IMG/VR virus record: IMGVR_UViG_3300047564_006544
Location: 1-64,000 of that record
Source of the DNA: a virus
Direction: 5' to 3' (one strand)
DNA: 64,000 nucleotides
The position numbers and the translations under genes are program-made. Shown here one piece after another: positions 1,124 to 61,491 of this stretch. Numbering within the stretch: position 1 is the stretch's first letter; each line of letters begins with the position of its first letter. The notes under the pieces were generated by a model. It made no database searches and was not told the origin of the DNA. It saw nothing but the letters and a program-made list of their open reading frames with translations.

Positions 1124-2023
1124 CTATGCAAAATAGTTCTTTATGAACTCAATTCCGTGTCCTTTTACTCCATCTTTATTTTTCTTTGATGAGAAGGTTC
1201 CACGATCCTTAAATATTGGATAACCGCTGTCCATAATTACCTGCATAATTGCAAGCTCTTCACGATCTGTAAGTTCATATTTCTCCTTTAGAAAGTCATA
1301 AACTTCTTCTAATGGCTTTCCTCCAGATACAACAGAATTTATTATTATTCCAGCTATTGCTCTTTCAAATGGAGAAACAAAAAGTTGAAGCTTTGGGTGT
1401 GCCGCTACCTTCTTTATCTCGCCAGTTACCTCATGATTATATGCAATTTCAATTTCTTCTGCATACTTCATTATATCATCATCTAATCCAGCTTTTTTCT
1501 TTAGGCCTTTTTTAAATGCTTTATCTAGCTTCTTGATATGCTCCTTTAAAAGAAGTATATCTTTCATTACTTTTACTCTTATTTCTTCAAGCATTGCATC
1601 ATCAAGAACACCAGTTTCATCTTTTCTTACTGCTTCAGAAATTTCTTTTCCAAGATTAGTAAGCCACTTTACAGCTCTTTCTGCACCAACAATACTCTTT
1701 CCATCATGCTTTGGAATTTTTCCTGGATAAGAATCTTTTATATAGTCCATAAAACGATTAACTGCACGATCCTTTTCCCAGCTTTCATTTTTAATTGGCT
1801 TATCATCAGTATCATTTTCTTGCGATTCTAGTTCTCTTTCATAGTCTTCTTTATAAATTGTAGAGCCTGGAATTAGAGTGCCTACTTCTGGCTGAGGTGA
1901 AAAATCATCATATACTTCGCTATGCTGAAATCCATTATCAACAAGTAGAGATTCATCCTCAGCAAATGATACAATTCCATTGCTTTCTGAGTATGTTACA
2001 GAACCGTTTGATGATTTATACAT
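1124..2023 (-). CDS. Hypothetical putative head protein with K-x-A motifs
   Basis: 299 aa, AGGAG RBS; motifs LKKKAG, MKYAEE, IKKVAA. Confidence 0.7.
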   Translation of the reverse strand: MYKSSNGSVTYSESNGIVSFAEDESLLVDNGFQHSEVYDDFSPQPEVGTLIPGSTIYKEDYERELESQENDTDDKPIKNESWEKDRAVNRFMDYIKDSYPGKIPKHDGKSIVGAERAVKWLTNLGKEISEAVRKDETGVLDDAMLEEIRVKVMKDILLLKEHIKKLDKAFKKGLKKKAGLDDDIMKYAEEIEIAYNHEVTGEIKKVAAHPKLQLFVSPFERAIAGIIINSVVSGGKPLEEVYDFLKEKYELTDREELAIMQVIMDSGYPIFKDRGTFSSKKNKDGVKGHGIEFIKNYFA

Positions 2024-2031
2024 TATATCTC

Positions 2032-2424
2032 CTAATCAATTAAACTTATAATACCATAATATATGCTTCTAATATTATCATCAGAATAGTAGTTTACAGG
2101 ATAAGACTGATAAGACTTTGAATTTCCAATATATAGATTTGGATATATTGGGCTACCAGAAACAAAGCTATTTCCAGATAATCTTTTGTGCTCACCTGGA
2201 GTCCACTTACAATCAACCGCACCTCTTTTTTCCATTATAAGATCTGCAAATGGGCACTCTGATTTTTCTTCTATTGATAAAAATACTTCGTAATTTTCTT
2301 CCCTATCAGATTCACTAGAATCTTCGTTTATTTTCTTTAAAGAAAATACAGAATTTCCAATGCACTTACAGGCATCTGGAATTGGAAGTCCAAAAGGACA
2401 TTGTTTGTTTTTTCCTCTAATCAT
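2032..2424 (-). CDS. Cys-rich hypothetical protein
   Basis: 130 aa; CPFG..CKC, CPFA, VDCKW; CTATTAAT motif upstream. Confidence 0.7.
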   Translation of the reverse strand: MIRGKNKQCPFGLPIPDACKCIGNSVFSLKKINEDSSESDREENYEVFLSIEEKSECPFADLIMEKRGAVDCKWTPGEHKRLSGNSFVSGSPIYPNLYIGNSKSYQSYPVNYYSDDNIRSIYYGIISLID

Positions 2425-2442
2425 GATGTTTTTACAAAAAAT

Positions 2443-2450
2443 ATTAATAG
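2443..2450 (-). promoter_or_regulatory. Putative late promoter core CTATTAAT
   Basis: Same or near-identical 8-mer upstream of the genes starting at 8079, 15408, 55429 and 60238. Confidence 0.45.
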
Positions 2451-2453
2451 TAG

Positions 2454-3239
2454 TTAAGATAAATATTTTGACAGCATCTTATTTTTTATAAGATACTCTG
2501 AATAAAATCCAGAAAGAGGAATTAATTTGAATAATCCAAGATCAAATATATTTGATATTGCCAACTCAGAATTTGATTCAAATGCAATATTTATTTCATT
2601 TGTAATATAATTTGTTGTTAATCTATTGTTTAATATAACTTCAGAATTATCTCTAACATAATCAACTATGCTGCTGTCTATTGACAGTCCATATTGAGAT
2701 GATAATTTTATTGCCCTAAATATTCTTCTTGGATCATTTTTTATTGTTATTTCTGGTGGTATTGGTGTTCTTAATATTTTTGACTCAATATCTTGCATTC
2801 CTAATCCAGTTGGATCAAATATATCTCCTGTCTCAAAATCTTGATGCATAGAATTTATAGTAAAATCTCTAGAAAAAGATTCGACATACTTTATTTTTTC
2901 TGGATGATTTTTTTGAACCCATTCTTTTACCATTGGATGCTGATTGCTTAAAACACCAGGAGAAAAATCTATACCATTTCCATTATAAAAAACTCTAATA
3001 TGTTTATCTTCAAACATTTTAAAAGAAGCTTTTTTTATAAAAGAAAGAAGAATGCCGAGCCTTATACACTCACTTGACAGGGTTGTAATATCAATATCTC
3101 TATTTTTTATATTTTCATTTAAAAGATAATTTCTAACAATGCCGCCAACAATATAAGGCCTATCAATAGAATATTGGCCACTTAAACTTAAAAGTGTACT
3201 AAGAAAATCATTATAATCTTTTAAGTAATCAACTACCAA
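2454..3239 (-). CDS. tRNA nucleotidyltransferase / poly(A) polymerase family (class II NTase)
   Basis: YIVGGIVRNYLL, DIDITT, SRDFTINSM, IFDPTGLGMQDI, DPRRIFRAIK motifs. Confidence 0.85.
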   Translation of the reverse strand: MVVDYLKDYNDFLSTLLSLSGQYSIDRPYIVGGIVRNYLLNENIKNRDIDITTLSSECIRLGILLSFIKKASFKMFEDKHIRVFYNGNGIDFSPGVLSNQHPMVKEWVQKNHPEKIKYVESFSRDFTINSMHQDFETGDIFDPTGLGMQDIESKILRTPIPPEITIKNDPRRIFRAIKLSSQYGLSIDSSIVDYVRDNSEVILNNRLTTNYITNEINIAFESNSELAISNIFDLGLFKLIPLSGFYSEYLIKNKMLSKYLS

Positions 3240-3250
3240 TTTATCCTACC

Positions 3251-4639
3251 TTATTGTGGTGTCTGTGGTGTAATCTGCTGTTGTGCTGGCTGCTGTAGTT
3301 CTTGCTCTGCCTCAGCTCTTGCCATTTCCATTATTGCCTTATTATTTGATAACATACCTAGCATTTTTGTTACTCTGGTTAGGGCATAAGAATAAGATTC
3401 AATTAGCTTGCTCTGTGCTTCAGCTAACTCAGGAAACATTGATGCAATACCAATCTTATCTAGCATAATATCGAATTCTGCAAGGTATCTAATTACACGT
3501 CTATCTGATAGAGTTCCAGCAATCTGCTCAAGTTTTTTTGATGCGTCATCAACGTCAATATCGCCAGATAGAATCTGATCGTATTCACCCTTTGCTGGCC
3601 CAGGAACTGGCTCAACATCGCTTAATATTTCTTTTCCTTTTTCAATATTTTCTTTTTCCTGCTGCTTCTTTTGAAGCTGATCTGGAGATATTTCTTCTTG
3701 TGCTACTGTAGGCTCTACTACTGGAGTCTCAACTGGAGCAACCTCTTCTGGTGCAACTGGTGGTGCTGCTTCCTGAGAATACTTATACAATACGGAGGCA
3801 CCATCATTAAATCCAAGCTTCTTAAGCTGATTTGCTGCACGGAAACTCACATCGGATGCTGTTGATTGAAGTCTTATTTTCCCAACCTGAATATCCAACT
3901 TGTTTAAAACCTGAGATATTTCTTCATACTTCTCTGGCTCAACATAATCTTCACTTTCTTTTAAGATCTTATCAACTCTTCTTAGGGCAGTATTAAATTT
4001 TTTCTTCCAGTTTTTATAATTTAATTTTTTCTCACCCTGTTCTTTTGCACTATTTACTTGCTTATCATGATCCAATACATAGTCAGCCCCAATATAGTTT
4101 GAGGTAGAGGTATATGCATCACCAGTTGCGCTTAATGGAAGTTGATATGATGCAGTCTTTACGTTGTATCTCAAGTGCTCTCCTTGGTTATAATATTTTA
4201 ACCAATTTAAAAAGTTTTTCTTTTCTTCTTCATCTTTAAAAATATTACTAGAATATTTTTTTACAGCATCGTTATAGTCTAAACCATCCCTGAATGTCGA
4301 TTCATAAATGCTATGAACACATGCTGCCCATTTTTGCAAATCATACCCAAAGAATGGATCTTTAAAAAAATAATTCTCCATCATTGGATATGCTTTCTTT
4401 TTTATTTGATTATCTCCAATTAACAATGAAGTTACAAAAAAATAAAAATCATTTTTTGTATTTAGCTTATTTATAATATCTTTATTTTGCCAGGCCTTTT
4501 TAACAAAAGAGCTGTGGTTTTTGCCAATCAAATTTCTTGATGCAACTTTTAATTTAAAATAATTTTTTATTTCAGATTCATCTACATCTTTTGGTAGATT
4601 TTTTAAAAAATTATCAATTGGATGATTATATTTTTTCAT
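3251..4639 (-). CDS. Hypothetical putative head protein with multiple K-x-A motifs
   Basis: 462 aa; LKVASR, VKKAWQ, KKKAYP, VKTASY, and AANQLKKLGFNDGASVLYKYSQ followed by a P/E-rich linker. Confidence 0.7.
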   Translation of the reverse strand: MKKYNHPIDNFLKNLPKDVDESEIKNYFKLKVASRNLIGKNHSSFVKKAWQNKDIINKLNTKNDFYFFVTSLLIGDNQIKKKAYPMMENYFFKDPFFGYDLQKWAACVHSIYESTFRDGLDYNDAVKKYSSNIFKDEEEKKNFLNWLKYYNQGEHLRYNVKTASYQLPLSATGDAYTSTSNYIGADYVLDHDKQVNSAKEQGEKKLNYKNWKKKFNTALRRVDKILKESEDYVEPEKYEEISQVLNKLDIQVGKIRLQSTASDVSFRAANQLKKLGFNDGASVLYKYSQEAAPPVAPEEVAPVETPVVEPTVAQEEISPDQLQKKQQEKENIEKGKEILSDVEPVPGPAKGEYDQILSGDIDVDDASKKLEQIAGTLSDRRVIRYLAEFDIMLDKIGIASMFPELAEAQSKLIESYSYALTRVTKMLGMLSNNKAIMEMARAEAEQELQQPAQQQITPQTPQ

Positions 4640-4643
4640 GTAC

Positions 4644-4898
4644 TTATAATTTTTCTATTAGTTCATTTACTTTTTTAAGATAAACATTCTTTTTTGCTGG
4701 ATCGAGTGAATTAAAAGCAGGATCTCTAGATATACCTTCTAATGCTTTTTTTATAAAATCATTTGATAGCTCTGGATCTGTATATCCAAGTTTTTCTTTT
4801 ATCCAATTTCTTATTGATATTTCACTATTTAAATCAGATATTTTTATCATAATGCTACCAGCTGGGGCATTGGAATTTTGACTAGACTTCTTCTGCAT
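4644..4898 (-). CDS. Hypothetical protein (starts MQKKSSQ)
   Basis: 84 aa, GAGGTG RBS, overlaps the upstream gene. Confidence 0.65.
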   Translation of the reverse strand: MQKKSSQNSNAPAGSIMIKISDLNSEISIRNWIKEKLGYTDPELSNDFIKKALEGISRDPAFNSLDPAKKNVYLKKVNELIEKL

Positions 4899-5583
4899 CT
4901 GACACCTCTATTAAGTATTGATTATATTCTGGAGAATCATGTTTTAAATTAGACATTCTATAGTTTAATCTTTCCATAAAAATTAATATAAGTGCAGGAT
5001 CCATATCTTTTAAAACATCAATAACTACTTCTTTCATTATTTTTATTTGATCATTTACAATATTTACGTTTAGATTATGTTCAATTTTTTTATCGGCAAA
5101 TCCTTCAATATACTTTTTCCAATCCTGCATGATTGATCTCATCATATTTAAATATTCTAAAAATACCCTATCATGCTTTATGTTTCCACCGGCAGCAACT
5201 GTATTGTAATAGAACTCCATTCTTGATGAAATAAGCCTTTCCATTTCAAGAAGCTTTCTTTGAACGTCCATTTCATTTGATACAATTTCATTTATCTTTT
5301 TTTGATACTCAGAAGAATTTGATACTGCTAATTTTAATTCATTTTCTTCTGATATTAGATCATCAGATTTCTTTTTTGACTTTATATCTTCAAGAAGATC
5401 TCCCTTTATATTTAGATGCTCTGATCTAAATTTTTGCAAAGTCATATATGATATGTGGAGTCTTCTTTTTTTTGGATATTTCTTTTTTAACCATGCATCA
5501 ACCTGCTTAACTGATTCACCGTTAAGCAGCATTTTTATTATTTCTTCTTTATCTGGATGTCTAGCTACTTTGTTTGATTCCAT
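4882..5583 (-). CDS. Putative terminase small subunit / HTH DNA-binding protein
   Basis: N-terminal HTH-like segment (HPDKEEIIKMLLNGESVKQVDAWLKK...ISYMTLQKF) followed by helical oligomerisation-like region; about 4.4 kb from terL. Confidence 0.4.
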   Translation of the reverse strand: MESNKVARHPDKEEIIKMLLNGESVKQVDAWLKKKYPKKRRLHISYMTLQKFRSEHLNIKGDLLEDIKSKKKSDDLISEENELKLAVSNSSEYQKKINEIVSNEMDVQRKLLEMERLISSRMEFYYNTVAAGGNIKHDRVFLEYLNMMRSIMQDWKKYIEGFADKKIEHNLNVNIVNDQIKIMKEVVIDVLKDMDPALILIFMERLNYRMSNLKHDSPEYNQYLIEVSDAEEV

Positions 5584-5595
5584 TTTTTTCCTAAA

Positions 5596-5623
5596 AAAAT
5601 AAGCCCATGAATAGGCTTATTTT
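5596..5623 (-). terminator. Intrinsic terminator
   Basis: AAAATAAGCC-N8-GGCTTATTTT inverted repeat with T-run on the minus strand. Confidence 0.7.
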
Positions 5624-5641
5624 ACGAAATATCAGAGTGTT

Positions 5642-6040
5642 TTATCTTGAAAAGATTTTTGTCTGATTTGAGACAGATGTTGGAGAGAAAGATCTTCCAT
5701 CACTTGTCTTAAAGCCCTCGTTGTAATTGAATACCTGCTTGGTGTATGGATTTACCCTTACACCGTCAGATGGAACTGCTGCCTGAACTCCTGGCATATC
5801 TGGAGCGTACCTTGTTGATAGTGAGTGATTTCCCTCGGAAATAATTGGCTTATAGTCTGGATGCTCGCCAAATACACCATATCTTTTTTCTGGATCTACT
5901 TTTGGAAGATCCATTTCGTCAAGAATATCAAATCTATTTTTGTATTCAATTACATTATTTCTTGGCTCCTGAAGAATTCCAGTGACCTGTGCAACCTTGT
6001 ATAATCTTTCTAATGCTTTTGCTCTTTCTGCTTTGTTCAT
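5642..6040 (-). CDS. Hypothetical putative virion protein
   Basis: 132 aa; N-terminal LERLYKVAQ motif. Confidence 0.7.
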   Translation of the reverse strand: MNKAERAKALERLYKVAQVTGILQEPRNNVIEYKNRFDILDEMDLPKVDPEKRYGVFGEHPDYKPIISEGNHSLSTRYAPDMPGVQAAVPSDGVRVNPYTKQVFNYNEGFKTSDGRSFSPTSVSNQTKIFSR

Positions 6041-6042
6041 TT

Positions 6043-7599
6043 TTAGCTCATTACAATCTTGCTTGTTGAAATTACAGTGCCTTCGATTGAATCAAGTCCT
6101 CTTTTTTCATTTCTGAACTTTGGAACTGGACGACCCCTTTCATCAAAGGCTATTTTGCTGAGGGGAAGACCAAGCTTTGGACAGAACCATTCTACAGAGT
6201 TTCTTGTACGAATTAAATCACCACGCTTTACGGCTTCTTTTATAAGATCCTGGTTGAATGACTGTGATGCTGTCTTAATCATCTTCTGGAAGTCTTCTAG
6301 TGCCATCTTAAATCTTTCTGGACCAAACTTTGTGCCTATTGTAGATAATGCGTCTTCTGAAGCCTTATAATCCTTCTTTGCAACGCCATCTATAACAACA
6401 TCCATAAGCTGAGCATAAGATAGTTTTCCTAGTTCGTCTGACTCTCTGGAGAATGCGGCATTATTTACCTGTCTTGCTCCAGCTAAAAATTCTGAATAAC
6501 CAGAAGTTGAGAAGTCATATTTTGAATTTCCTGATGCAAACTCTGATGGCATAAGAACCTTCTCTCCTACCATCTCAACAGGAACTACAAAACTTCTCTC
6601 TCCTGCTGATGTTGCGGTCTTTACCATGAAGGACATGCCTTTCTTGCTTGTTCCAGAGAACTTTACCTGAGCTCTTGCACCCCAAGATGAAACTTCTGTT
6701 GATACAACAGAATGTGCTAGCTTAATCTGTGCTGGAGAGTATTTTGATGAGGCAAGAAGGACCTCTTCTGACATTTCAAATTTCTCTTTTAATCCTGTTG
6801 GTGCAGCAACAGATGGAATTGATACAGATTCAGTCTGTCTAAGATCTGCATATTTAGAAAGATTTGTGTCTTTCTGTTTTTTCTGTGCAGTCTTTAGTGT
6901 TACAAGAACATTTTCTTTATTTAGCTTTACAAGGTTACCTTCAGAAACAACTTCGGATGGAATTCCAACAGCTCCATTAGATACCTGAACTGGTATACTG
7001 ACATAGCTTGTTGTAAAATCTGGATTTTTGTAATAAGCATTACAAAGTATGTAGTGGTCATTTCCAGTTACAGTCTTTACCATATCTGGCTTAATTCCCA
7101 TTGAATTAAGCTCTAATGTAACTAGTCTTTCTGCTTTCTTTACTAAGTTCTTATTATAAGTTCCAGAGTCATCATTTGAGCCAAATGAAAATAATACTGA
7201 GAATGCATCAGATAGCGGAGTTGTACCGGTTAATGATACTGCCTTTTGCATATCTGCTGCTGTCTTTGATATTTCTGTTTTCTTTGGCTCTGGTAGCTTT
7301 CCATAGCCATCACGAAGTAAGTCGCCAAGCTCGTCACGAAATGCAGTTGCTCCACCGGAAATATTTGAGAACCTATCATAAAGAGAGGTAATTTCATTTT
7401 GTGTTATATATTGCTGTCTTGAAGCAACTTTTTTAATAACACTTCTCATATTTCCAATTACTTGGTCTTTTTGGTTATTTTCCCAGGCAGTATCAAATCT
7501 GCTTAATACATAATTACTAGGATATTCTCTTCCTATTTCTAATGAGCGTAGAGCACTTTCTGCTTGTTTCTTTAAAAGTTTTAATGACATAGTTTTCAC
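6043..7599 (-). CDS. Hypothetical putative head protein with many K-x-A motifs
   Basis: 518 aa; IKKVAS, SKTAAD, VKKAER, LKTAQK, SKYADL, VKTATS, IKTASQ. Confidence 0.7.
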   Translation of the reverse strand: MKTMSLKLLKKQAESALRSLEIGREYPSNYVLSRFDTAWENNQKDQVIGNMRSVIKKVASRQQYITQNEITSLYDRFSNISGGATAFRDELGDLLRDGYGKLPEPKKTEISKTAADMQKAVSLTGTTPLSDAFSVLFSFGSNDDSGTYNKNLVKKAERLVTLELNSMGIKPDMVKTVTGNDHYILCNAYYKNPDFTTSYVSIPVQVSNGAVGIPSEVVSEGNLVKLNKENVLVTLKTAQKKQKDTNLSKYADLRQTESVSIPSVAAPTGLKEKFEMSEEVLLASSKYSPAQIKLAHSVVSTEVSSWGARAQVKFSGTSKKGMSFMVKTATSAGERSFVVPVEMVGEKVLMPSEFASGNSKYDFSTSGYSEFLAGARQVNNAAFSRESDELGKLSYAQLMDVVIDGVAKKDYKASEDALSTIGTKFGPERFKMALEDFQKMIKTASQSFNQDLIKEAVKRGDLIRTRNSVEWFCPKLGLPLSKIAFDERGRPVPKFRNEKRGLDSIEGTVISTSKIVMS

Positions 7600-8079
7600 C
7601 TAAATAAATTTTTTCAATTCTGGAAAAGTTGAGACAAGAGCTTCTCTTTTTGTATGAGGCTGATCATTTAGAAGTTCTTTTACAAATGAGTTGTCAGAAG
7701 ATGTTTTTTCTATCAATGCTGATTTAAAAATAGAAATATCATCAGATGAAAATCCATATTCATCTGATGAGAATCTTGTTATTGGAATATTCTTATATGA
7801 CAAAGTCACATTTCTTTTGTCATAATCAGAGATTACTTCCCAATCTCCATTTTTTCTAGTCTCAAACTGTGGGTTAGATGCTCTAACTAAATGTGGTTTG
7901 CCATCAATATCTTGTAAGGCCCACAATCCATCATATGGATCATCTGCAACCTTAAATCTATCAAAAGCAACCTTTTTAAATGAAATAGATTTACTTATTT
8001 CAATTTGGTCTTTTACGCCCAAATCTGAAGATTGTTTTTTTGCAAGCTTAATTAAGATATCGTCTAAATAACTAGACAT
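7600..8079 (-). CDS. Hypothetical putative virion protein
   Basis: 159 aa; LIKLAK, FKKVAF; first gene of the cluster, CTATTAAT twice upstream. Confidence 0.7.
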   Translation of the reverse strand: MSSYLDDILIKLAKKQSSDLGVKDQIEISKSISFKKVAFDRFKVADDPYDGLWALQDIDGKPHLVRASNPQFETRKNGDWEVISDYDKRNVTLSYKNIPITRFSSDEYGFSSDDISIFKSALIEKTSSDNSFVKELLNDQPHTKREALVSTFPELKKFI

Positions 8080-8160: not shown

Positions 8161-8601
8161 TTAATCAATCTTCTTTCTTAGTGCTTCCATTTCTAGCAAT
8201 ATTTCCTGTATTTTTTCATTATTTTTGCAAATTTTTTTTAATTTTTTAAAAATACCACCATATCTTTTTTTATCATTTCTATAATCAAGATTGCCACGCA
8301 AGGCTTTGTGAACCGCAGATTGAGTTATTCCAAGGTGCTCTGCTATCTCATTTTGTGTCTTGCCCATAAGAATCATAAATAAAACTTTTTTTTGATGCTC
8401 AGTAAGCATCTCACTATTTACAACAGAGTAAACTTCTTCAAGAAGTTTTTCTCTTAGGTCTAATAGCTCTTCAGAATAAGAATTATCAGATAAAATTCCG
8501 CCTATACCTTTTTCTTCTGAAAAATTATTTAGTTTAGATTGATCAAATGCAACCTCAACTATTTTATACTGATAATTCTTACTTTTTAATTTCATTACCA
8601 C
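8161..8601 (-). CDS. Sigma-70 region-4-like HTH protein
   Basis: LTEHQKKVLFMILMGKTQNEIAEHLGITQSAVHKAL; no region 2. Confidence 0.75.
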   Translation of the reverse strand: MVMKLKSKNYQYKIVEVAFDQSKLNNFSEEKGIGGILSDNSYSEELLDLREKLLEEVYSVVNSEMLTEHQKKVLFMILMGKTQNEIAEHLGITQSAVHKALRGNLDYRNDKKRYGGIFKKLKKICKNNEKIQEILLEMEALRKKID

Positions 8602-9353
8602 TCCATTGGAATAATACTCTCTATTTCACTATGAAAGTCATCGAGAGATTTTTTACTATCTAAAAAGTACTCTCCCGCATCTTTATAATCTAATGGAAGT
8701 TTCAAAAATCTAAGTTTTATTCCTTTATTTATATATTTATTATAAATGGCCTCTGCAGATTTCTGTCCAGGCTCATCTCCATCTAAAAGGACTGATATTT
8801 TATCAGTATATCTTGCAAGCTTTACAAAGTGATTTTTTGAAAATCCAGTTCCGCATACGGCCACAGTATTTTTTATGCCAGCATCATACATGCTGATTTG
8901 ATCAAAGTAGCCCTCAACAACATATGCGTTTTGATTTAGTAGAATGTCAGCTCTTGCAAGATTTAATCCAAATAAATAGTTTGTCTTTTTAAATTTTGAA
9001 TTTTTATACTTTGGAATTCCAACTATCTCTCTTTCCTCACTTGAGAGCATACATCTTCCGGCCATTGCTACTGGCACACCATAATCATCATAGATTGGAA
9101 ATGTTATTGAATAATAATTTGAAAACTGACTGCTGCCATCATAATCCATGAGACCAGCTGATTTCAAAAAATCATCAGAAACATAATTTGTAAGTTTATT
9201 TATATTTCTTGGAAAGAAACCAATCTTATACTTTTGAAAAGCATCAACGGAGAGATTTCTCTCTCCGAAGATATAGTCCTTTCCAAGCTTTGTTTTTTTG
9301 AGATTGTCGTGACAAATCTCAATTAGTTTTGTTAGCTCCTGGACCTCGTTCAT
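8595..9353 (-). CDS. dnaG: DNA primase catalytic (RPD/TOPRIM) domain, lacking the zinc-binding domain
   Basis: ITFPIYD..G..VAMAGR, PKYKNS, YVVEGYFDQISM, NTVAVCGT, LLDGDEPGQKSA, KDAGEY. Confidence 0.85.
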   Translation of the reverse strand: MNEVQELTKLIEICHDNLKKTKLGKDYIFGERNLSVDAFQKYKIGFFPRNINKLTNYVSDDFLKSAGLMDYDGSSQFSNYYSITFPIYDDYGVPVAMAGRCMLSSEEREIVGIPKYKNSKFKKTNYLFGLNLARADILLNQNAYVVEGYFDQISMYDAGIKNTVAVCGTGFSKNHFVKLARYTDKISVLLDGDEPGQKSAEAIYNKYINKGIKLRFLKLPLDYKDAGEYFLDSKKSLDDFHSEIESIIPMEW

Positions 9354-13827: not shown

Positions 13828-14391
13828 TTATTTCCAATCAATATCACCACAGATGTCTTTATTTTCCTGACTTCCACGGCTGCGGAACCCGTGATCGTCA
13901 GATTCATTATACTCCGGCGTGGGAGCAAAAGTTGAATAATTTGAGGAGGCCTCTATACCATAATCTCTCCTTAGGAATGATTTTAGAGAATAATGCCACA
14001 TTGAAAAATACTTTATTTTATTTTCTAGCCATAGCTTGCAGACTTTTGCTTTTTCAAGCTCATCTTTAACTGCAATAACTTCATCATCAGATTGAATAAA
14101 CCATTCTTTTTCTTTTGCGGTTTTATAGCCTGCATTTTTTGCTCTTATAAGCGCGGACTCTGCTTCTGCTTTGTCATAGGCTGTTTTCTTTATCGAAATC
14201 CATCTTTCAACCTGGATTATCTTTTCTTGACAAAGATCTTGCGCTTCGATTGTTGATACCAAGTAAAGCTCTGCAATATTTGCATCAATAACTTTTGTTT
14301 TTGGCAGAGAAGCTGCCAACCTTTGAATTTCAGTTATATCAAGGTTTTCTATTGAAAACTCCTTGGTATTTATTACCTCGCTGAAGCGCAT
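13828..14391 (-). CDS. Putative recombination mediator (UvsY-like helical protein)
   Basis: TAKEKEWFIQSDDEVIAVKDELEKAK segment; adjacent to ssb, ruvC and recA. Confidence 0.45.
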   Translation of the reverse strand: MRFSEVINTKEFSIENLDITEIQRLAASLPKTKVIDANIAELYLVSTIEAQDLCQEKIIQVERWISIKKTAYDKAEAESALIRAKNAGYKTAKEKEWFIQSDDEVIAVKDELEKAKVCKLWLENKIKYFSMWHYSLKSFLRRDYGIEASSNYSTFAPTPEYNESDDHGFRSRGSQENKDICGDIDWK

Positions 14392-48380: not shown

Positions 48381-48398
48381 GTGCCATTCTAAAAAACT

Positions 48399-51756: not shown

Positions 51757-52579
51757 TTAGTTCCTTAAGATCTTTAACCTTGAAACCTGAAGCAGCCCTA
51801 TGGCCCCCTCCTCCAAATTTTACCGCAATTGCAGAAACGTCAAAATCTTTTTCTTTTCCACATCTGATAGAGAAAACATAGCCGTCTCCATCAAAATAAT
51901 AGGCCAACCCATATTTGGTGCCTACTTCATCTGCAACTCTATGTGCCAGCTCCGATTGATATAGTGGAGAGTTTACCGCTGGAATTTCCTCTCCAAGAAC
52001 CATTAGAGTATGTCTTTTGGCATAGATTTCTTTTATTTTCTTTTCTCTTTGGCGAAGAAGTGCTGATCCTTCCTCTAGAAACTCTGAAAACTTTTTATCG
52101 TCCATTAGCCTAGAGTTTAACTCTTCCCATAGCCTAAAAGAATAATCATAGCTATCTATTACTGCAAGTATTTCTTTTGCAAATGGCATCTGCCATTTCC
52201 AAAGATCTTGATCTTCTATATACTTTAAAAGTATTGGTGGTTCTTTATTTAGTCCGTTACAATAATACCAAGAAAGTATTGAGCCACAATGAGACATATC
52301 AAAGTGACAAAAGTCAAGATCTTTTAGTGCCTCTTCTGCTGTTTTGTGATGATCTATTACTGTTATAGATTTGTTTTTTTCTTTTAGATTTAGCAGAGTT
52401 TCTTTTGAATATGAAAAATCTGCAATCCAAATATCCTTATCTTCTAGGCCTTCTGGTGGTGGAGAGCCGTGGGAAACCGGAATGTAAGTCATTTCCTCTC
52501 CCCACTTCTTCTCAAAGCACCAACGAGAGCCATAACCATCTGGGCAGTTTTTATGATATAATAAAACTTTGTCTTTCAT
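51746..52579 (-). CDS. DHH/DHHA1 phosphoesterase
   Basis: YHKNCPDG, IADFS, IDHHKT, DQDLW, GGGGHRAASGF. Confidence 0.88.
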   Translation of the reverse strand: MKDKVLLYHKNCPDGYGSRWCFEKKWGEEMTYIPVSHGSPPPEGLEDKDIWIADFSYSKETLLNLKEKNKSITVIDHHKTAEEALKDLDFCHFDMSHCGSILSWYYCNGLNKEPPILLKYIEDQDLWKWQMPFAKEILAVIDSYDYSFRLWEELNSRLMDDKKFSEFLEEGSALLRQREKKIKEIYAKRHTLMVLGEEIPAVNSPLYQSELAHRVADEVGTKYGLAYYFDGDGYVFSIRCGKEKDFDVSAIAVKFGGGGHRAASGFKVKDLKELNEQ

Positions 52580-52586
52580 GTCAAAC

Positions 52587-53660
52587 CTAAATTGTTAATC
52601 CCTCTACAACATCTGTAGACGAAGAGTAATAGATTCTTTCCAACTCTGGGCACTCTACAGACAGCCTTGCTAGTATAAATTTTTTCATTAAATCAATTGA
52701 TTCAAAAGTTAATAAATCGTTTTTGTAAAATAATTTATAAATATTTACTGCTTCTAAGATATCACATTTTGATATAATCAGATGATTTCCGCCAGCAGTA
52801 TTTAGTGCAAAAATTAATCTATCAAGATTTAGATAGTTTACCTTACGACGGCGACCTGTTGTTGTTCCGTATTCTTGACCAGCATCTGCAATACTTAAAA
52901 GCTCTGGGTTATCAAAAAGTGTTTCTGGAAAATCTGGATCTTCTCCAGATCTTGTATCATAAATTTTTGCTACTGCAAAAATGTTTTTAATTTTCTTTGG
53001 TGAAAATCCAATTGAGCAAGCAGCATAAGGAAGTGTTTCGCTACTTGTTACATATGGATAATTTCCCCAATTTATATCAAGAAAGAATCCCTGAGCACCT
53101 TCGCAAAGTATGTTTCCATAAAGCCTTCCATCAAATAGGTGCTTTTTCCAGAAGGAATCTAACGCCGCAACATCTTTAAATTGAATTCCTGTTCTGGCAT
53201 ATTTATCAGAATATGCTGGAGCTATTCCCTTTGATGTTGTTCCGAGTTTTTTTGCAAGATTTTTTCTATCTTCATCTATATGCTCTGCTGTTACGATGTG
53301 TGTAGATGGAGAAATCTTTATAAGGTTTGGATCAAATCCAGATTCTCTTAGATAAGAGAATTCTTCTTTTAATAGCTCTAGATTTACAACGCAACCTGGG
53401 CCAATTAGTGAGGTAACTCCGTGAAATACTCCTGATGGAACCATATGTGTTTTGTATTTCTTACCACCTACAAACACTGTATGACCAGCATTTTGTCCGC
53501 CACCCCAACGTGCAACAAAATTATAGTGCTTATCATCTGCTCCAAAAATCTTTGCTGCTTTTGATTTAAAAGATGATAAGTAGCTTGATACTTTTCCTTT
53601 GCCACCATCACCATAGTCTGCGCCGTACACAACATCAACAGAAATAATTTCGCGGCTCAT
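52587..53660 (-). CDS. purA: Adenylosuccinate synthetase (short type)
   Basis: YGDGGKGK, GGQNAGHT, GTTSKGIAPAY, EGAQG..LD..WG.YPYVTSS, EYGTTTGRRR. Confidence 0.9.
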   Translation of the reverse strand: MSREIISVDVVYGADYGDGGKGKVSSYLSSFKSKAAKIFGADDKHYNFVARWGGGQNAGHTVFVGGKKYKTHMVPSGVFHGVTSLIGPGCVVNLELLKEEFSYLRESGFDPNLIKISPSTHIVTAEHIDEDRKNLAKKLGTTSKGIAPAYSDKYARTGIQFKDVAALDSFWKKHLFDGRLYGNILCEGAQGFFLDINWGNYPYVTSSETLPYAACSIGFSPKKIKNIFAVAKIYDTRSGEDPDFPETLFDNPELLSIADAGQEYGTTTGRRRKVNYLNLDRLIFALNTAGGNHLIISKCDILEAVNIYKLFYKNDLLTFESIDLMKKFILARLSVECPELERIYYSSSTDVVEGLTI

Positions 53661-53688
53661 TTGCCCTCCGCAACAATTATACCGATTG

Positions 53689-53967
53689 CTACTCCGCTGC
53701 CTTGCGACGTGCTTTCTTTTTCTTTCTCATTTTTAAGAGGTACTGAAAATACTTTGCGGCAACAGGATCTTCTTCATATCCGGCATCTTCTGGAACCTCA
53801 TGTCTTTTTTTTACTATAGGAACGGCATTCTCATTGTGATCGTCAGAAAATTCTTTTCCAAAAAATCTATTTGAGACAGCAGAATTTGCTGCATCCATAC
53901 CGGTTCTATTTTCGTATGGTGCTCCCGGTATTGCCATATCATTTAATCCCAAAGCTTTCTTTTTCAT
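53689..53967 (-). CDS. Hypothetical protein (starts MKKKAL)
   Basis: 92 aa, basic C-terminus. Confidence 0.6.
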   Translation of the reverse strand: MKKKALGLNDMAIPGAPYENRTGMDAANSAVSNRFFGKEFSDDHNENAVPIVKKRHEVPEDAGYEEDPVAAKYFQYLLKMRKKKKARRKAAE

Positions 53968-54644
53968 TTTGAGAAAAGTTTTTCTAAGTCCCTTTTCAAA
54001 ACATCTAAGTCTTTGCTTGCCATTTTCTTTGGAAGTTCGTTTGCCTTCTCTTCTTTTGGAAGAAGTGATGCAATACGATAAACATCCTTTACAAAGGATA
54101 CTTCGCCAAGATCATCAAGTTTTGATGCTAGTTTTTTTAACTCTAAATTAGGATCTACCTTTGAATTCACTTTAAAACTTTGCATTGCTCTATCTGCCTC
54201 CGCTTCTGCAAACTCTTCTGATTGTAATTTGCCTGTATCTTTAAATCCTTTCTTATGACCTTTTTCATGAGAAAAAATATGTAACATTGATGATAATAAA
54301 ATAATAATAGTATTTATTTTTGGATTATTTTCTAAATTTGAAAGATCCAAAGAAGAAAGTTCACTTGGATCTATTTTTTGCTTTCTCATTTCATCTTGAA
54401 TTGCTTTTTCTATTGCAGGCAAAACAAGATGTATATCGTCTCTTTTGTCTGGATTTGGATCATTTGTAACATATGCTAGAGCATTTGGATTATCACTTGG
54501 TGGAGAATTTTCTATTATGATTTTATCTACGGCGGGAAGATCAAACTGTGGGTCAAATTTAATCTTTCCGCCACCACCAGATTTTAGCAGCTCTAGAATT
54601 CTGTTTATTTTTGACTGATCTAAAAATCCAGCTCTTTTTATCAT
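53964..54644 (-). CDS. Putative zincin with helical tag (starts MIKRAG)
   Basis: ALAYV, FSHEKGH...SEEFAE; C-terminal LKKLASKLDDLGEVSFVKDVYRIAS, KKMASK. Confidence 0.55.
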   Translation of the reverse strand: MIKRAGFLDQSKINRILELLKSGGGGKIKFDPQFDLPAVDKIIIENSPPSDNPNALAYVTNDPNPDKRDDIHLVLPAIEKAIQDEMRKQKIDPSELSSLDLSNLENNPKINTIIILLSSMLHIFSHEKGHKKGFKDTGKLQSEEFAEAEADRAMQSFKVNSKVDPNLELKKLASKLDDLGEVSFVKDVYRIASLLPKEEKANELPKKMASKDLDVLKRDLEKLFSK

Positions 54645-55429
54645 TTTAAGTAATCTCCTCTCTGCTTTCTTTCGCCTTTACCAAGTCTTGATGGCGTCCA
54701 ATCTTTCTTTACTGTTCCCTCTCTATATTTCTTTAGTTTTTCTGATAGCCATTGTCCTTGAACAGAAATGATATCACAGTATTGCTCGTCTAATATTGTT
54801 ACGAAAAACTGATTTGATCCAAAGCTACGAATCTCCATTATATTTTCTGATTTCTTTGGATTTTTCCATATATGCCTTATATTATTAGAGTTTTTTGCAT
54901 AAAGATCGGCAATATATTTACTAAGCTCAAGTATACCGGCATTTTCAAAAGTTTTTATTATATTTGGTGGAAAGGCCATTGTTTTATAGTCTTGTTTAAA
55001 AATTTTTCTAACTGTAGTATTTACTCTTATTTCTTTTCCGCGAGCAGGATCTGTTATTCCTGTTGAAACTCTTGAGCCAAACTCTGGAGGAGGAGGACCC
55101 TCTTTAATTGATTCTTTTACTGCAATAAGTCTATTTATCGAATCAGCTGCTATACAAATATAATATATTCCAAAAGATTTTGATTTGTATATTATTCCAA
55201 GCTCTCTTTTTTTATTAGAAACTGAACTTGATCCTGGAATAAATGTTTTTACATTTTCAGAATTAGCAACATCACTTCCTATAATATTGTTTAATTCAGC
55301 GTTATTTACATTTCCAAAGTCTTTTGCAAATTTTTCTCTAAAAAACATTCTTGGCCCGGTAGAAATGTGTATTTTTCTTCCTGACTCATCTGAAAAATCT
55401 GTAGGATCTATTGAAGCTAGCTTTTGCAT
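54641..55429 (-). CDS. Hypothetical protein (starts MQKLAS)
   Basis: 262 aa; two related halves each starting with a TD..G+.I.. segment. Confidence 0.65.
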   Translation of the reverse strand: MQKLASIDPTDFSDESGRKIHISTGPRMFFREKFAKDFGNVNNAELNNIIGSDVANSENVKTFIPGSSSVSNKKRELGIIYKSKSFGIYYICIAADSINRLIAVKESIKEGPPPPEFGSRVSTGITDPARGKEIRVNTTVRKIFKQDYKTMAFPPNIIKTFENAGILELSKYIADLYAKNSNNIRHIWKNPKKSENIMEIRSFGSNQFFVTILDEQYCDIISVQGQWLSEKLKKYREGTVKKDWTPSRLGKGERKQRGDYLK

Positions 55430-56920: not shown

Positions 56921-58540
56921 TTATTCTTGGATTAGGTCGGAAAGATCCTGGTAAACACAAACTTCTGTTGTCAGGAGAGTACCTGCAGCTGATACGGCAT
57001 TTTCTACGCCCTTTCTAACTACCTTTACAGGATCAATGATGCCTCTTTCCATCATATCTTCTACAAACTCTCCTCTTAGAGCGTCAAATCCAACAAACCC
57101 TCCGGTTGAAATTATCTTTTCTTGTGGGCCATGATAATCAAATCCTGCATTACGCATAATCTGAATAAATGGCTCCCTAAGAGCAGTACGAAGAATATTT
57201 AGACCCGCAACTTCTTCTGGAAGAAGCTTTCCTGCTGGCTGAGCATTGATATAATCTCCAACAACTCTTGATGCCTGAAGAAGAGCTGAGCCTCCACCTG
57301 GAACAATTCCCATTTCAATTGCTGCACGAACTGCATTTAGAGAGTCTTCAACTCGATCCTTTCGCTCTCTCATTTCTCCTTCGGTAGAACCACCAACACG
57401 GAATACTGCTGCTCCACCAGCCAGCTTTGAAAGTCTGTCTTTTAGAGACGCCTTTTGGTGATCAAAGATTGTTGAATCTCCCATTTGAGACTTAATCATT
57501 CTAACTCTCATATCAACAGATTCTTTTCCACCAGCACCATCCACAATTAGAGTTGTATTTCTTGTGCAGAGGATTCTTCTTGCTCTACCAAGATCCTCTA
57601 ACTCTGCATCGCGTAGTGCTCTTCCGTTAGAATTGTCAAATACTTTTCCGCCAACAACTGCTGCAATATCTTCTAGCATATCGCGTCTAACGTCACCAAA
57701 TCCTGGTGCTTTTATTGCACAACAAAGAAGATTTGCTTTCTGTCTATTTAGAACGAGAGTTGCAAGAGCTTCACCTTCAACATCACGAGCAATAATAAAT
57801 AGTGGCTTACCTGCTCCATGTGCCTTCTGGATAATCTCTAGAAACTCTGATGATGATGAAATTTTATCATCATAAAGTACAATATAAGCTCCCTCAAATT
57901 CGCAAGATAGCTTTTCAACATTTGTAACAAATGCTGGAGATAGCCAGCCCTTTGCAACCTGAAGTCCCTCTGTATAAGATACTTGAGTTTGACCTCCTGT
58001 AGATTCTTCTAGGGAAATTACACCATCCTCACCAACATTAGATACAACCTCACCAATCATTGAACCCAATTCTGAGTCATTGTTTGTTGAGATTGTGGCA
58101 ACATGCTTTAGTGTTTCTTCCGAATCAATACTGCGAGATAGCGATGATAGGAATGTTGTAACCTGAGAAAGACCAATATCTAAGCCTCTTTTTAGAAGGA
58201 CTGGATTGTGTCCTGCTGCAACCATCTTAAGACCATCATTAAAAATTGCCTGAGATAGAACGGTTGCAGTGGTTGTTCCGTCACCAGCCATAGAATTTGT
58301 TGCAGAAGCAGCAGTCTTAATAAGTTGCGCTCCAATATTTTGGAGAGGATCTTTTAGCTCAATTGCTCTTGCGACGGATACTCCATCTTTTGTAATTACT
58401 GGAGGACCATAGCCTCTCTCTAATGCTGCATGGCGACCTCTTGGACCAAGAGTGCATTTTACTGCATCTGCCACAATATTTACGCCTTTCTGAATTTCTG
58501 CTCTTGCCTCAGAACCAAACTTAACTTCTTTTGCTGACAT
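56921..58540 (-). CDS. groEL: Chaperonin GroEL, paralog 2
   Basis: [64 protein letters not shown]; no GGM tail. Confidence 0.95.
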
Positions 58541-59176: not shown

Positions 59177-59184
59177 TTTAAATC

Positions 59185-60219
59185 CTAAAAAACAATATCA
59201 TCAAATGCTTTATCTAGTTCTGACTTCTTGTCGGAATCAACCAACTTTTTCTCTATAATACTCTTTACCGGAAATAAATCAGAATCTCCAATAAAAAGTG
59301 CATGAGAAATATCCCAATGAGACATCTTCTGCATTTCTGCAAAATATGTTGCCAACCTCTTAATCATACTGTTGGTACTCTCTTTTGTTACCACTTCCTG
59401 CTCATAGTTATCGCTGGTGGTAATTTTAACTTTTACACCGGCAGTAACGCCTCCCCACTGTGAAATAGCACCAAGCTTCTTGCACTCCTGCCAATAAGTG
59501 TTAGAATCAGACATTACTTCTAGAGTTCTCTGGTATAGCTCTCTTGAAAACTCGAAACCTGTTTTTTCATAATATTTAAAATGTCTTAGAGCCTGAAATA
59601 CTTTTGATGCAAGACTCTTTCTCATCAGGCCTTGGTTATTTATTGTAAGCTGCTTTTTATTCATTGAGTCCATAAATGATGAATGAATAATAAATTCACC
59701 ATTATAAATTGCAACAGAACAAACGCCAAGATCAAAAGAGGATAAGAGTGATTCTACAGAATCTTGCTTTCTAACAATACACTGAATTGGCTTTAGCTTT
59801 ACTTTTCTTTTTGAACTAGAAAACATAAATGTATTTGCCCAATCAGAGGTTCTATCTATCGAAATAGATTCTCTATTTGATAATGAAATATTTTTATATG
59901 AAATTGACAATAAGCTGTTGTTATATGAAATTTTATCTTTTAATTCTTTTGAAAATAGAATATCTATTCCAGAATCATTGCAATCATTTGTTATCCATAG
60001 ATCAACATCAGAAAATGGAACTAATGGATTTTGAAACATATTCTTTGAGATTAAAGAGCTAGCCAAACTATCAGATAGACTCTGCATCATTTCATTTACA
60101 ATGAATGCGTTTAAAGCAAATCCACCAGCAATAATAATATCTTTATTATTTGCAAGATCTTCGGGAAGATATGTTTTAATTAAATCTACTACTAATTTTG
60201 CATCTTTTTTGATAAACAT
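59185..60219 (-). CDS. Phage nucleotidyltransferase (Pol-beta / CCA-head-like)
   Basis: IIIAGGFA, SDVDLW, LLSSFDLGVCSVAI. Confidence 0.65.
   Translation of the reverse strand: MFIKKDAKLVVDLIKTYLPEDLANNKDIIIAGGFALNAFIVNEMMQSLSDSLASSLISKNMFQNPLVPFSDVDLWITNDCNDSGIDILFSKELKDKISYNNSLLSISYKNISLSNRESISIDRTSDWANTFMFSSSKRKVKLKPIQCIVRKQDSVESLLSSFDLGVCSVAIYNGEFIIHSSFMDSMNKKQLTINNQGLMRKSLASKVFQALRHFKYYEKTGFEFSRELYQRTLEVMSDSNTYWQECKKLGAISQWGGVTAGVKVKITTSDNYEQEVVTKESTNSMIKRLATYFAEMQKMSHWDISHALFIGDSDLFPVKSIIEKKLVDSDKKSELDKAFDDIVF
60189..60196 (+). promoter_or_regulatory. Putative late promoter CTACTAAT
   Basis: CTACTAATTTT occurs upstream of both credible plus-strand genes (15408 and 60238). Confidence 0.45.
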
Positions 60220-60237
60220 TATTGCTCCGAGGTTATA

Positions 60238-61491
60238 ATGAGAAGCTTAGGTAAGATTAGAAGATTATTAAAAATTGCACAAGAAGGTAGTGTAGAAGTC
60301 TGGCAACAAGTAAAGGCAGAAGCCGAAAGTGAAGAGCTTCCGCCAGAGTTAGACGTAGCTTCTATTCAAGAGTCTGCAAAGGTTGCAGAGGATTTGGGCG
60401 AAAAAGCTGAGGCTGCAAAAAAATCTGCAGAATCTCTTTCTGATGAAGAAAAGAGCACTCTAAAAGAAGCATCTTCTGAACCTGGATTTTTAGAAAAAGT
60501 AATGTCATCCGGTAACATTGAGGCATCTGCATCGTTCGTTATTGATACGCTATTCGTGAAAGCAGCTTCTAAAAAAATAGGAAGAAAAAGAGCTACCGCA
60601 ATTATACGCGACATAAATATATATTCCTCTTTGCATGGTAGCAATTTAAAAATTGCATCAAGAAATTCTATTGAGCTTGCTCTTATTAGAAAAAAAGAAG
60701 CATTTGATAAAATGCTTTCAGATGAAAATTTCTTAAAAAATGCATCCCCAGAGTATTTGATGATAAAAAAGAGCGATTTTATGTCTGGACTAAAGGGATT
60801 GGCAGAAGGTATTTCTGGTGCTGCCGGATCAATAGGAAGGGGAATAAAAACAGTGCTCTCTGGAGTATGGGGATTTATATGGAAAGTATTTCCTATAATT
60901 ACTCTTTTTTACTCAATTAAAGATGGATATAATTCTTACTCTATGGTTCAAGAGTCTCTTAAAAAAATAGTGTCTAATTTTTCAGATCTTGGAAGCGAAG
61001 AGTCTCTGCTCGATCCAAAGCATATTTCTGGGCTTATTGAAGAATTTAAAAATATTCCAGAAACACTGCTTAGAGTGACAAGGCTAAACAAAATTGCAAT
61101 GTTTTATAAAAAGCACTGGTACAACATTTGGTTTTCTGTTGCTTCAGCAGTAGAAGATATAATCTCAATAGTATTACTATTCTTTACTGGCGGAATGTCT
61201 GCTGTAGTAGCAAGAGTAGCAGGAATAGTCGGAACTATATTGGGACTTGGCTCGCTATTTGGATATTTGGCAACTTCATTTTTTGATCTTGGAGTCGGAG
61301 ATTACGTTGCAAATAGCAAGGCAATATCCGGTATAGCCGGAGAGCACATATCTGAAGTTGATGCTGGTGTTGCGCCAGAGTCAGAAGAAGGAGCCGCTCC
61401 TGCTGACAGCGGCAACGAAGAAGCACTAAGAACATTTAGACTTCTACAGGATTCTATGTCCGCAGGAAAGGCAGTGCAATCAGTAGGGTAA
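60238..61491 (+). CDS. Membrane protein with N-terminal K-x-A motif region, putatively virion-delivered
   Basis: LKIAQE, LKEASS, VKAASK, LKIASR, KKEAFD, LKNASP; later hydrophobic helices (VWGFIWKVFPIITLFY; ISIVLLFFTGG...LFGYLA). Confidence 0.7.
   Translation: MRSLGKIRRLLKIAQEGSVEVWQQVKAEAESEELPPELDVASIQESAKVAEDLGEKAEAAKKSAESLSDEEKSTLKEASSEPGFLEKVMSSGNIEASASFVIDTLFVKAASKKIGRKRATAIIRDINIYSSLHGSNLKIASRNSIELALIRKKEAFDKMLSDENFLKNASPEYLMIKKSDFMSGLKGLAEGISGAAGSIGRGIKTVLSGVWGFIWKVFPIITLFYSIKDGYNSYSMVQESLKKIVSNFSDLGSEESLLDPKHISGLIEEFKNIPETLLRVTRLNKIAMFYKKHWYNIWFSVASAVEDIISIVLLFFTGGMSAVVARVAGIVGTILGLGSLFGYLATSFFDLGVGDYVANSKAISGIAGEHISEVDAGVAPESEEGAAPADSGNEEALRTFRLLQDSMSAGKAVQSVG

Follow-up and report, generated by a model that had tools for sequence, protein, structure and literature searches.

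The window analyzed here comprises the leading 64 kb (64,000 nucleotides) of the 80,004-bp virus record IMGVR_UViG_3300047564_006544, which has a G+C content of 36% and a CheckV completeness of 24%. A short peptide composed of a hydrophobic residue, Lys, any residue, Ala and then Ser or Gln was found to be located in, and specific to, the head genes of this phage and its relatives, where its positions are conserved. The peptide probably represents the cutting code of a head protease in the style of T4 and phiKZ, joined to capsid-targeting leaders and endowed with a new specificity. The window is part of a giant freshwater phage of about 330 kb with head genes related to those of Bacillus phage G. 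The head module was reached through IMG/VR relatives of the fragment of the terminase large subunit (TerL) at the left edge of the window, and the comparison included the relative G007, which is complete at 335 kb, has terminal repeats and is collinear with the whole window at protein identities of 25-65%.

The pattern [ILVMF]KK?xA[SQ] was fixed before the test regions were inspected, and expected counts, here and below, were obtained by shuffling each protein. The head operon within the window (524-8079) carried six motifs against 0.54 expected (p 2e-5), and the TerL-to-capsid module of a relative with 97% TerL identity, which had not been seen by the first-pass annotation of the window, carried 11 against 1.17 expected (p 5e-8). 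The replication and metabolism block, with nothing excluded, gave five against 3.1 expected, a difference that was not significant. The late versus replication contrast suggested in the first-pass annotation was borne out, with 17 motifs in 7.9 thousand residues of head genes as compared with five in 16.4 thousand residues of replication genes (rate ratio of 7.1, Fisher test 2e-5). Similarly, the head module of G007 held seven motifs against 2.2 expected and 105 copies of K-x-A against 66, while its other 354 proteins held 11 motifs against 11.8 expected. Moreover, when patterns were enumerated without bias in the head proteins, the motif came up again: the top patterns were h[KR].A, K.A[AS], h.KhA and hK.AS (p 4e-10 to 4e-8, which survives correction for about 2 million possible patterns), none of which surfaced in the same enumeration of the replication block, and IK.A[ST] ranked sixth in the head module of G007. 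The codons used within the motif vary, with TCN and AGY for Ser and several codons for Leu, Ile and Val, so the signal lies at the protein level. An origin at the DNA level, through a recurring nucleotide word or a cryptic start codon, was rejected by this codon variation and by the lack of a recognizable start signal upstream of the internal motifs.

The placement of the sites in the head module of the 97%-identical relative was equally informative. There, TerL is followed by the portal gene, three small genes, a gene for a 700-residue protein and one for a 1059-residue protein with a protease domain, and further genes of the same contig encode an acidic 208-residue protein, proteins of 232, 148, 829 and 212 residues and a 346-residue capsid protein. 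The latter shares 50% identity with gp27, the major capsid protein of Bacillus phage G (PDB 6wkk, E 9e-88), and presents a 45-residue N-terminal extension absent from the phage G protein. The motif IVKYA-S lies inside this extension (VKYAS, residues 24-28) and recurs in all 38 distinct N-termini found in IMG/VR, apart from a single Lys-to-Arg substitution and a few from Ser to Ala; it is followed by a linker, which varies more than any other stretch of the protein. The 1059-residue protein, encoded outside the window, matched the head maturation protease family phrog_18299 (E 8e-10); homology to phage G gp19 covers its first 240 residues (33% identity over 216 residues, E 5e-27), and homology to gp21 its last 60. 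It carries LKKAAS at position 107, IVKTAC at about 272 and LKGAQ at 624, the last immediately before a proline-rich linker, beyond which lies the scaffold-like part (acidic and basic). K274 and A276, at the C-terminal boundary of the protease domain, do not vary between this phage, two relatives and gp19; the sequences are IVKTAC, ILKVAC and, in gp19, LLKIAS. Three sites were also found in the acidic 208-residue scaffold-like protein, three in the 700-residue protein and one in the portal (FKKGAS at 53), which matches phage G gp14. Therefore, the capsid, portal and protease, whose inspection had been proposed in the first-pass annotation, all carry the motif in the genes of the relatives. A capsid extension, a domain edge and a scaffold junction are positions at which other prohead proteases and herpesvirus proteases act.

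By analogy with these systems, the simplest and most likely candidate for the cutting of leaders and head proteins would be the head-maturation protease, in which DH (122-123) and GSMG (173-176) are invariant. The window also encodes an M16 zinc peptidase of the pitrilysin and mitochondrial-processing-peptidase family, with both domains and an intact HFLEH zinc motif, which is 97% identical in the relative G003, ranks among the most conserved genes of the lineage and has a homolog in phage G, gp2 (26% identity), encoded beside TerL. Mitochondrial presequences are basic and amphipathic, and a basic residue precedes the cut by two or three positions (R-2/R-3). The M16 enzyme might thus be imagined to cut the leaders in place of the prohead protease, since these leaders share the basic, amphipathic character and largely lack acidic residues. 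This possibility is quite improbable: a gp19-homologous head-maturation protease exists and bears the conserved motif where its own domain ends, numerous copies of the motif lie internally rather than in N-terminal presequences, and the M16 gene sits in the metabolism block with no CTRYTAAT element upstream (see below), the sole nearby copy (44958) falling inside the gene. The protease Prp (PF04327) had no match in the contigs G000, G001, G003 and G004, while control genomes did match, and a wider set of families (Capsid, S78 protease, Gp23, Peptidase_S77, Terminase_6N, Prp) had none in the first four contigs. A Trypsin_2 protease of 249 residues with a hydrophobic N-terminal anchor (genome 66981-67730, L001:4981-5730, plus strand; 87% identical in G001) is a third protease candidate.

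Within the window, the position of the TerL fragment together with the collinear relatives assigns 524-8079 to the head operon, as its segment immediately upstream of TerL. The proximity to terL noted in the first-pass annotation was confirmed, the fragment being the C-terminal third of a 592-residue TerL (97%-identical ortholog at L027:10001-11779; phrog_675, terminase large subunit, E 6e-61). The three orphans nearest to TerL had no PHROG match and have collinear orthologs in G007 with 33-50% identity. The leader of the 132-residue protein is retained in the relatives L027 and L029 as YKVAQ or YKIAQ, and the 462-residue protein holds four copies of [ILVMF]KK?xA against 1.1 expected (P 0.02). 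The richest protein is that of 518 residues, with nine PhiK(K)xA copies against 1.1 expected (0 of 1000 shuffles). Its family comprises at least 295 representatives, and in 46 aligned homologs PhiKxAS occurs 38 times against 4.5 expected, at about 28 alignment columns, a spread which implies that sites were gained repeatedly. In its AlphaFold model (predicted local distance difference test, pLDDT, 82), the strict sites at 55-60 and 441-445 are at the C-terminal ends of helices, and many looser copies are inside confidently folded helices and one in a strand; these copies may have a structural role instead of being cleaved. Among viral folds, the model matched phage G gp7 best (E 6e-5), no clear fold was found by Foldseek against PDB, and tblastn against GenBank phages gave no match. 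PHROGs and Pfam returned nothing for the 462-, 518-, 417-, 912-, 583- and 2457-residue proteins, and neither the ESM Atlas nor a profile search of PDB sequences identified the orphans.

These structural features raise the alternative of an assembly or docking element that is not cut, in which the motif would terminate an amphipathic helix binding the scaffold, the portal or the inside of the capsid, with no proteolysis involved. Such docking would fit the modeled location of most copies of the 518-residue protein in well-predicted helices, the helical and amphipathic character of the leaders, the recurrence of a mini-domain, M.K.L[LV]K[ILV]A..LD..G...E[AS]D, in at least five paralogs, and the precedent of P1 DarB, which is packaged through an N-terminal signal for which the excerpted text of PMC9024508 reports no protease motif. 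Yet the motif occupies typical processing positions, namely where the capsid extension ends, where the protease domain ends and at the junction preceding the linker, and it ends in a small pair, Ala followed by Ser, Cys or Gln. A preference for a pair of small residues is typical of protease sites. On balance, docking alone is rather unlikely, even if it deserves some weight.

Beyond the head operon, 17 proteins in four contigs were found in which the first 10-30 residues end in the motif. These N-termini differ from others in net charge (+2.8 versus +0.5) and helical hydrophobic moment (1.33 versus 0.78), and are largely devoid of acidic residues. The dispersed genes, for which G007 has no orthologs, frequently stand alone on the plus strand, and their leaders would fit removable capsid-targeting leaders. 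Conservation was marked in two families: M..RL.KL..L.K.A is nearly invariant among the 583-residue proteins, whose middle is mosaic, and M1, L10, K12 and A14 are invariant in homologs of the 417-residue protein down to 31% identity. The 417-residue protein holds five copies of [ILVMF]KK?xA against 1.1 expected (P 0.007), with LKEAS, VKAAS, LKIAS and LKNAS about 30 residues apart and followed by transmembrane-like helices; its AlphaFold model places the motifs at helix ends or in loops. A tandem-repeat origin of these four sites was discarded by eye, the intervening segments sharing only the pentapeptide. In the three-gene unit at 53689-55429, the internal LKKLAS is retained in G001 and G003, and the strings at the extreme N-termini are weak evidence. 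The 2457-residue protein is an uncertain member, since four motifs in 2457 residues are near chance; it was also considered as a polymerase, and this was rejected by the absence of a DxDGD motif.

Several dispersed tagged genes share with the head operon a promoter-like sequence, CTRYTAAT, 15-80 nt upstream. As the first-pass annotation had reported for isolated units, it is present in the window, lying 16-72 nt upstream of 2032-2424, 7600-8079 (twice), 15408-15965, 54641-55429 and 60238-61491, and it also precedes the G007 ortholog of the first head-operon gene, at 78514. The sharing of this element, and the fact that the leaders end in the same pentapeptide as the head proteins, bear on another explanation, in which the dispersed proteins are envelope- or lysis-related and targeted to membranes and only the head-operon motif is related to a protease. 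Its attraction is that the 417-residue protein has several predicted hydrophobic helices, the 912-residue protein has a glycine- and alanine-rich hydrophobic segment, and the tagged set includes a glucosaminidase that matches endolysin families. Wall hydrolases and membrane segments are also found together in the internal virion proteins of other phages. The membrane explanation is accordingly judged improbable, and the glucosaminidase and the 912-residue protein, the latter with repeated domains that had no Pfam match and looked peptidoglycan-binding-like, show features typical of ejection proteins. The status of the dispersed proteins as cargo is inference only.

Two other shared elements were observed in these proteins. 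The 912- and 583-residue proteins (genome 74566-79057, L001:12566-17057, outside the window) also have conserved basic tags at their C-termini, RFVKLAEERRERIRREIEANLTPAE.AAMRRLR.RGA and DP[KR]IKKLATLRRLRVRSQME....FGRSR[IV]S, the second of which is invariant in 14 homologs with mosaic middles. A two-helix N-terminal mini-domain, in its fuller form M.K.L[LV]K[ILV]A..LD..G[FL]..E[AS]D...I[IK][KR].[VI]A[SQ], is shared by at least five proteins that otherwise differ (G004 L021:11046-12122, L022:4037-4366, L022:18935-19438 and L023:9822-10616, and also G001), whose genes are mostly behind CTRYTAAT; it had no Pfam match.

Besides the in-helix copies of the 518-residue protein and the membrane explanation of the dispersed set, several further points weigh against a processing code. 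Among 707,281 patterns of the form XX.XX in 46,000 residues, the motif ranked about 20th (p 7.5e-6), behind generic helix patterns, so a genome-wide finding would not stand on statistics alone, and the motif became convincing only once the proteins were split by gene module. No capsid, portal or protease gene was recognizable in the 80-kb record by PHROGs and Pfam, and the head genes of the key test came from relatives (TerL identity of 95-97%) and G007 rather than from the record itself. The protease domain had no sequence match in PDB and its family is unsettled; its hhalign alignment with T4 gp21 was weak (E 0.06), although the catalytic His and Ser of gp21 align with the invariant DH and GSMG. 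In G007, both sites of the 462-residue protein, the leader of the 132-residue protein and LKKAAS of the protease are not kept. Finally, we infer from known systems that cleavage and packaging take place, as well as which enzyme acts and where it cuts, the scissile bond being placed after Ala by analogy only.

The first of these points bears on whether the motif reflects nothing more than the composition of Lys- and Ala-rich helices in a Lys-rich proteome, defined post hoc. In the 80-kb contig, K-x-[A/S] followed by any residue, as the first-pass annotation had titled it, is too loose and takes in chance matches, with 353 copies against 332 expected (z 1.3); K-x-A shows about the same enrichment as E-x-A (z 3.3 versus 3.1), and generic helix patterns score as high as the motif. 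Chance-level examples among the strings cited earlier are MKKKAL, MIKRAG and MQKKSSQ, as is MKIAS of the primase zinc-ribbon protein. In contrast, the strict [ILVM]KxA[SQ] was about 3-4-fold enriched in the same contig (15 against 3.7 expected) and likewise enriched in related contigs (7 against 3.1 and 6 against 1.8), and the variants with E or R for K, G or S for A, or T/N for S/Q, as well as the reversed motif, were flat. The strict motif was not enriched in 50 kb of T4, where T4's own [LI]xE motif was enriched in the structural region as a positive control, nor in 40 kb of phage G (2 against 1.2 expected); K-x-A was enriched in the first 40 kb of the latter (81 against 52). The out-of-sample module, the same head-only pattern in the complete relative G007, the unprompted emergence of the pattern in head proteins and the conservation of positions over 38 capsid variants and out to phage G all speak against chance, which these tests largely refute and which is now highly improbable. 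The idea of a K-x-A head maturation/loading code put forward in the first-pass annotation held up in every sequence-level comparison that it had suggested, once its motif was tightened.

In a processing code of this kind, the protease would be the N-terminal domain of the 1059-residue protease-scaffold protein, encoded just past the left end of the window, and the recognized peptide would be hydrophobic-(x)-Lys-x-Ala with Ser, Gln or Cys as the next residue, the cut falling after Ala by analogy. The predicted targets would be the N-terminal extension of the capsid protein and the protease itself, which would be freed from its scaffold part; further predicted targets would include the portal, the acidic scaffold-like protein and large head-operon proteins, among them those of 518, 462 and 132 residues. 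A second set would be formed by scattered late proteins, mostly in isolated units behind CTRYTAAT, in which a basic amphipathic helix of 10-30 residues ends in the motif. Such a leader may act like the capsid-targeting sequence of T4, docking the protein into the prohead and then being removed.

A broader proposal, advanced tentatively and falling short of the probable, is that phage-G-like megaphages in general, a widespread clade with more than 300 relatives of the capsid gene in IMG/VR, use a protease with Lys at P3 and Ala at P1 and a portable leader, a basic helix with that site at its end, to load fast-changing cargo, and that the M16 peptidase might clear the released leaders as the mitochondrial presequence protease does. 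As part of the same tentative proposal, the cargo would consist of wall hydrolases, membrane-active proteins and possibly enzymes, and could be read from the genome of any member. Phage G, which can be grown, and its uncultured relatives belong to the largest phages known, and functions have yet to be assigned to most of their genes. If the code is real, a readable tag would sort their orphan genes into virion or injected and intracellular proteins without experiment, would represent a head-protease specificity not described for phages in the literature searched, and would offer a handle for packaging foreign proteins in very large capsids, as with the T4 targeting sequence.

Table. Features of the window and tagged proteins of the phage. 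Positions are those of the window; a slash within a leader marks the predicted cut.
Feature	Position	Strand	Identification and sites
TerL, C-terminal third	2-505	-	gene continues past left end of window
Three orphans (196, 299, 130 aa)	524-2424	-	between motif-rich genes and TerL
CTRYTAAT	2443		upstream of 2032-2424
Nucleotidyltransferase-like protein (PolyA_pol head domain)	2454-3239	-	PF01743, E 5e-14; one motif, IKKAS 3024-3038
462-aa head-operon protein	3251-4639	-	LKVAS 4538-4552, VKTAS 4148-4162
Gene with MQKKSSQ	4644-4898		
132-aa protein	5642-6040	-	N-terminal leader MNKAERAKALERL-YKVA/Q, motif 5987-6001 (LYKVAQ 5987-6004)
518-aa conserved protein	6043-7599	-	strict sites IKKVAS 7420-7437, LKTAQ 6883-6897, IKTAS 6265-6279
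First head-operon gene, 159 aa	7600-8079	-	N-terminus ..DDILIKLAK; two CTRYTAAT at 8108, 8152
GroEL paralog, full-length	10875-12518	-	PHROGs/Pfam
SSB, string KKTASS	13171-13188		
UvsY-like protein, string IKKTAY	14176-14193		
185-aa gene, isolated	15408-15965	+	behind CTACTAAT (region from 15384); leader MKNKILKLSKILFNLN-LKKEA/S, motif 15456-15473
DnaE-type polymerase	15969-19346		PHROGs/Pfam
2457-aa protein	20414-27787	-	MIKKTAQ 27767-27787 (N-terminus), IKEAQ at residue 42, WRKIAQ 20510-20527 (36 residues before C-terminus)
M16 zinc peptidase	44136-45335	-	Pfam Peptidase_M16, M16_C
Three-gene unit	53689-55429	-	behind CTRYTAAT (55466); gene starts MKKKAL (53689-53967), MIKRAG (53964-54644), MQKLAS (54641-55429); internal LKKLAS 54123-54140
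GroEL paralog, full-length	56921-58540	-	PHROGs/Pfam
417-aa gene, isolated	60238-61491	+	behind CTRYTAAT (region from 60189); leader MRSLGKIRRL-LKIA/Q; motifs 60268-60747 (LLKIAQ 60265-60282)
UvsX, SSB, RuvC, SbcCD, two sigma-like factors			replication/metabolism block; PHROGs/Pfam
FtsK-like ATPase, Hsp20, M16 peptidase, PurZ-like adenylosuccinate synthetase			same block; PHROGs/Pfam
912-aa protein			leader MRRISARSFDNF-IKIA/S
583-aa protein			leader MSSLRLAKLTQL-MKEA/Q
Glucosaminidase with endolysin-family matches			leader MNRNIRKNKIAYL-FKIA/S

All strings quoted in the first-pass annotation were found in the genes to which it had assigned them, and its copy numbers were about right: for seven, five and six copies in the 518-, 462- and 417-residue proteins, [ILVMF]KK?xA gave nine, four and five. 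Its description of the motif carriers as orphans stood in part, several of them belonging to large conserved families such as that of the 518-residue protein, with 295 representative homologs.

The genes of the window lie nearly all on the minus strand, no tRNA was found in it, and a replication and metabolism block was delineated by PHROGs and Pfam scans. The IMG/VR contig G004 (71,983 bp) overlaps the right end exactly and adds 69 kb, mostly of small accessory genes. The second GroEL paralog is 98% identical in the relative G001, and the two paralogs together with Hsp20 (42207-42740, minus strand) make an unusually rich phage chaperone set. The PurZ-like synthetase (52587-53660; phrog_1211, E 2e-62) adjoins a DHH phosphoesterase (51746-52579; phrog_4771, E 8e-67), both on the minus strand, and this pair may point to 2-aminoadenine (Z-base) DNA in the phage. 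The M16 peptidase lies in a block of raised G+C (43096-49765; 0.41-0.50 versus 0.36 overall) that also holds a 381-residue phrog_1314 protein and a 354-residue ATPase (phrog_1297); its genes are 88-97% identical in G003, two neighbors of the M16 gene are 62-64% identical in G007, and the genes of the block have the look of a strongly conserved core and not of recent acquisitions.

The primase is split into a TOPRIM part of 252 residues and a CHC2 zinc-ribbon part of 175 residues, encoded 26 kb apart (8595-9353 and 35410-35937, minus strand), and a GIY-YIG homing endonuclease gene adjoins the latter (34574-35332, minus strand). An FtsK/SpoIIIE-like ATPase of 348 residues (35942-36988, minus strand) is present in this tailed phage, which also has a normal TerL. 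Two fibre-like proteins are encoded at 37677-41041 (minus strand): one of 547 residues, similar to the tail-fibre protein of a cyanophage (37% identity over 108 residues), and one of 570 residues with ice-binding-type beta-roll repeats (PF21300). In G007 (L110), the versions of TerL (957 residues, 87366-90239), portal (1286, 90249-94109), DnaE (1405, 67116-71333) and SbcC (1075, 51911-55138) are 280-730 residues longer, which suggests inteins or other insertions.

Literature searches returned no description of a hydrophobic-K-x-A-[S/Q] motif. A close parallel is T4, in which, according to PMC9024508 (on Mullaney and Black; see also PMC9026906), unrelated proteins enter the head via a short N-terminal leader that ends in a protease motif. 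In T4, a single protease, gp21, trims the capsid, the scaffold, itself and internal proteins (IPI, IPII, IPIII and Alt) at a shared motif, and the same is predicted here. Unlike T4, where the cut follows Glu ([L/I]-x-E), P1 would be Ala by analogy, with Lys two residues before it and Ser, Gln or Cys after it; moreover, the protease is here fused to a scaffold-like region, and kinship with gp21 is only hinted at. The prohead protease motifs of phiKZ and SPN3US also end in Glu (A/S/G-x-E). In the sequences examined here, [ILVM]ExA[SQ] and its kin were flat and the enriched motif was built on Lys and Ala, which indicates a different specificity, outside the Glu-specific group. In the giant phages phiKZ (gp175) and SPN3US (gp245), a short motif marks the processing sites of many head and ejection proteins, and N-terminal propeptides are removed, as described in PMC5694885, PMC7411985 and PMC10052503. 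They represent a different lineage, the phage studied here being related to Bacillus phage G (capsid at 50%, portal and protease).

In the staphylococcal phage 80alpha, the capsid and scaffold proteins carry an N-terminal peptide of 13-14 residues that ends in Ala followed by Ser and is cut by the host protease Prp (ribosomal protein L27 type). An N-terminal peptide common to unrelated head proteins is likewise found here, whereas the motif is also internal and in the protease itself, and a Prp homolog was not found in four contigs. Herpesvirus assemblin cleaves itself at a domain edge and near the scaffold, with Ala at P1, Ser at P1' and a hydrophobic residue upstream. Similarly, the protease is here fused to a scaffold part, with IVKTA/C at the domain edge and LKGA/Q before the linker as predicted sites; the register differs, with Lys at P3, and these are bacterial viruses, compared by sequence layout.

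Another close system is the head module of Bacillus phage G (Donellivirus), for which no cleavage data were found in the consulted passages of the multi-omics study PMC12484599. Its capsid lacks the 45-residue extension, its protease and scaffold-like genes are separate and the strict motif is not enriched in its first 40 kb. It shares the capsid gp27 (50%), the portal gp14 (32%), the protease gp19 (33%), the C-terminus of gp21 and the M16 peptidase gp2 (26%), and its gp19 keeps LLKIAS at the aligned domain edge.

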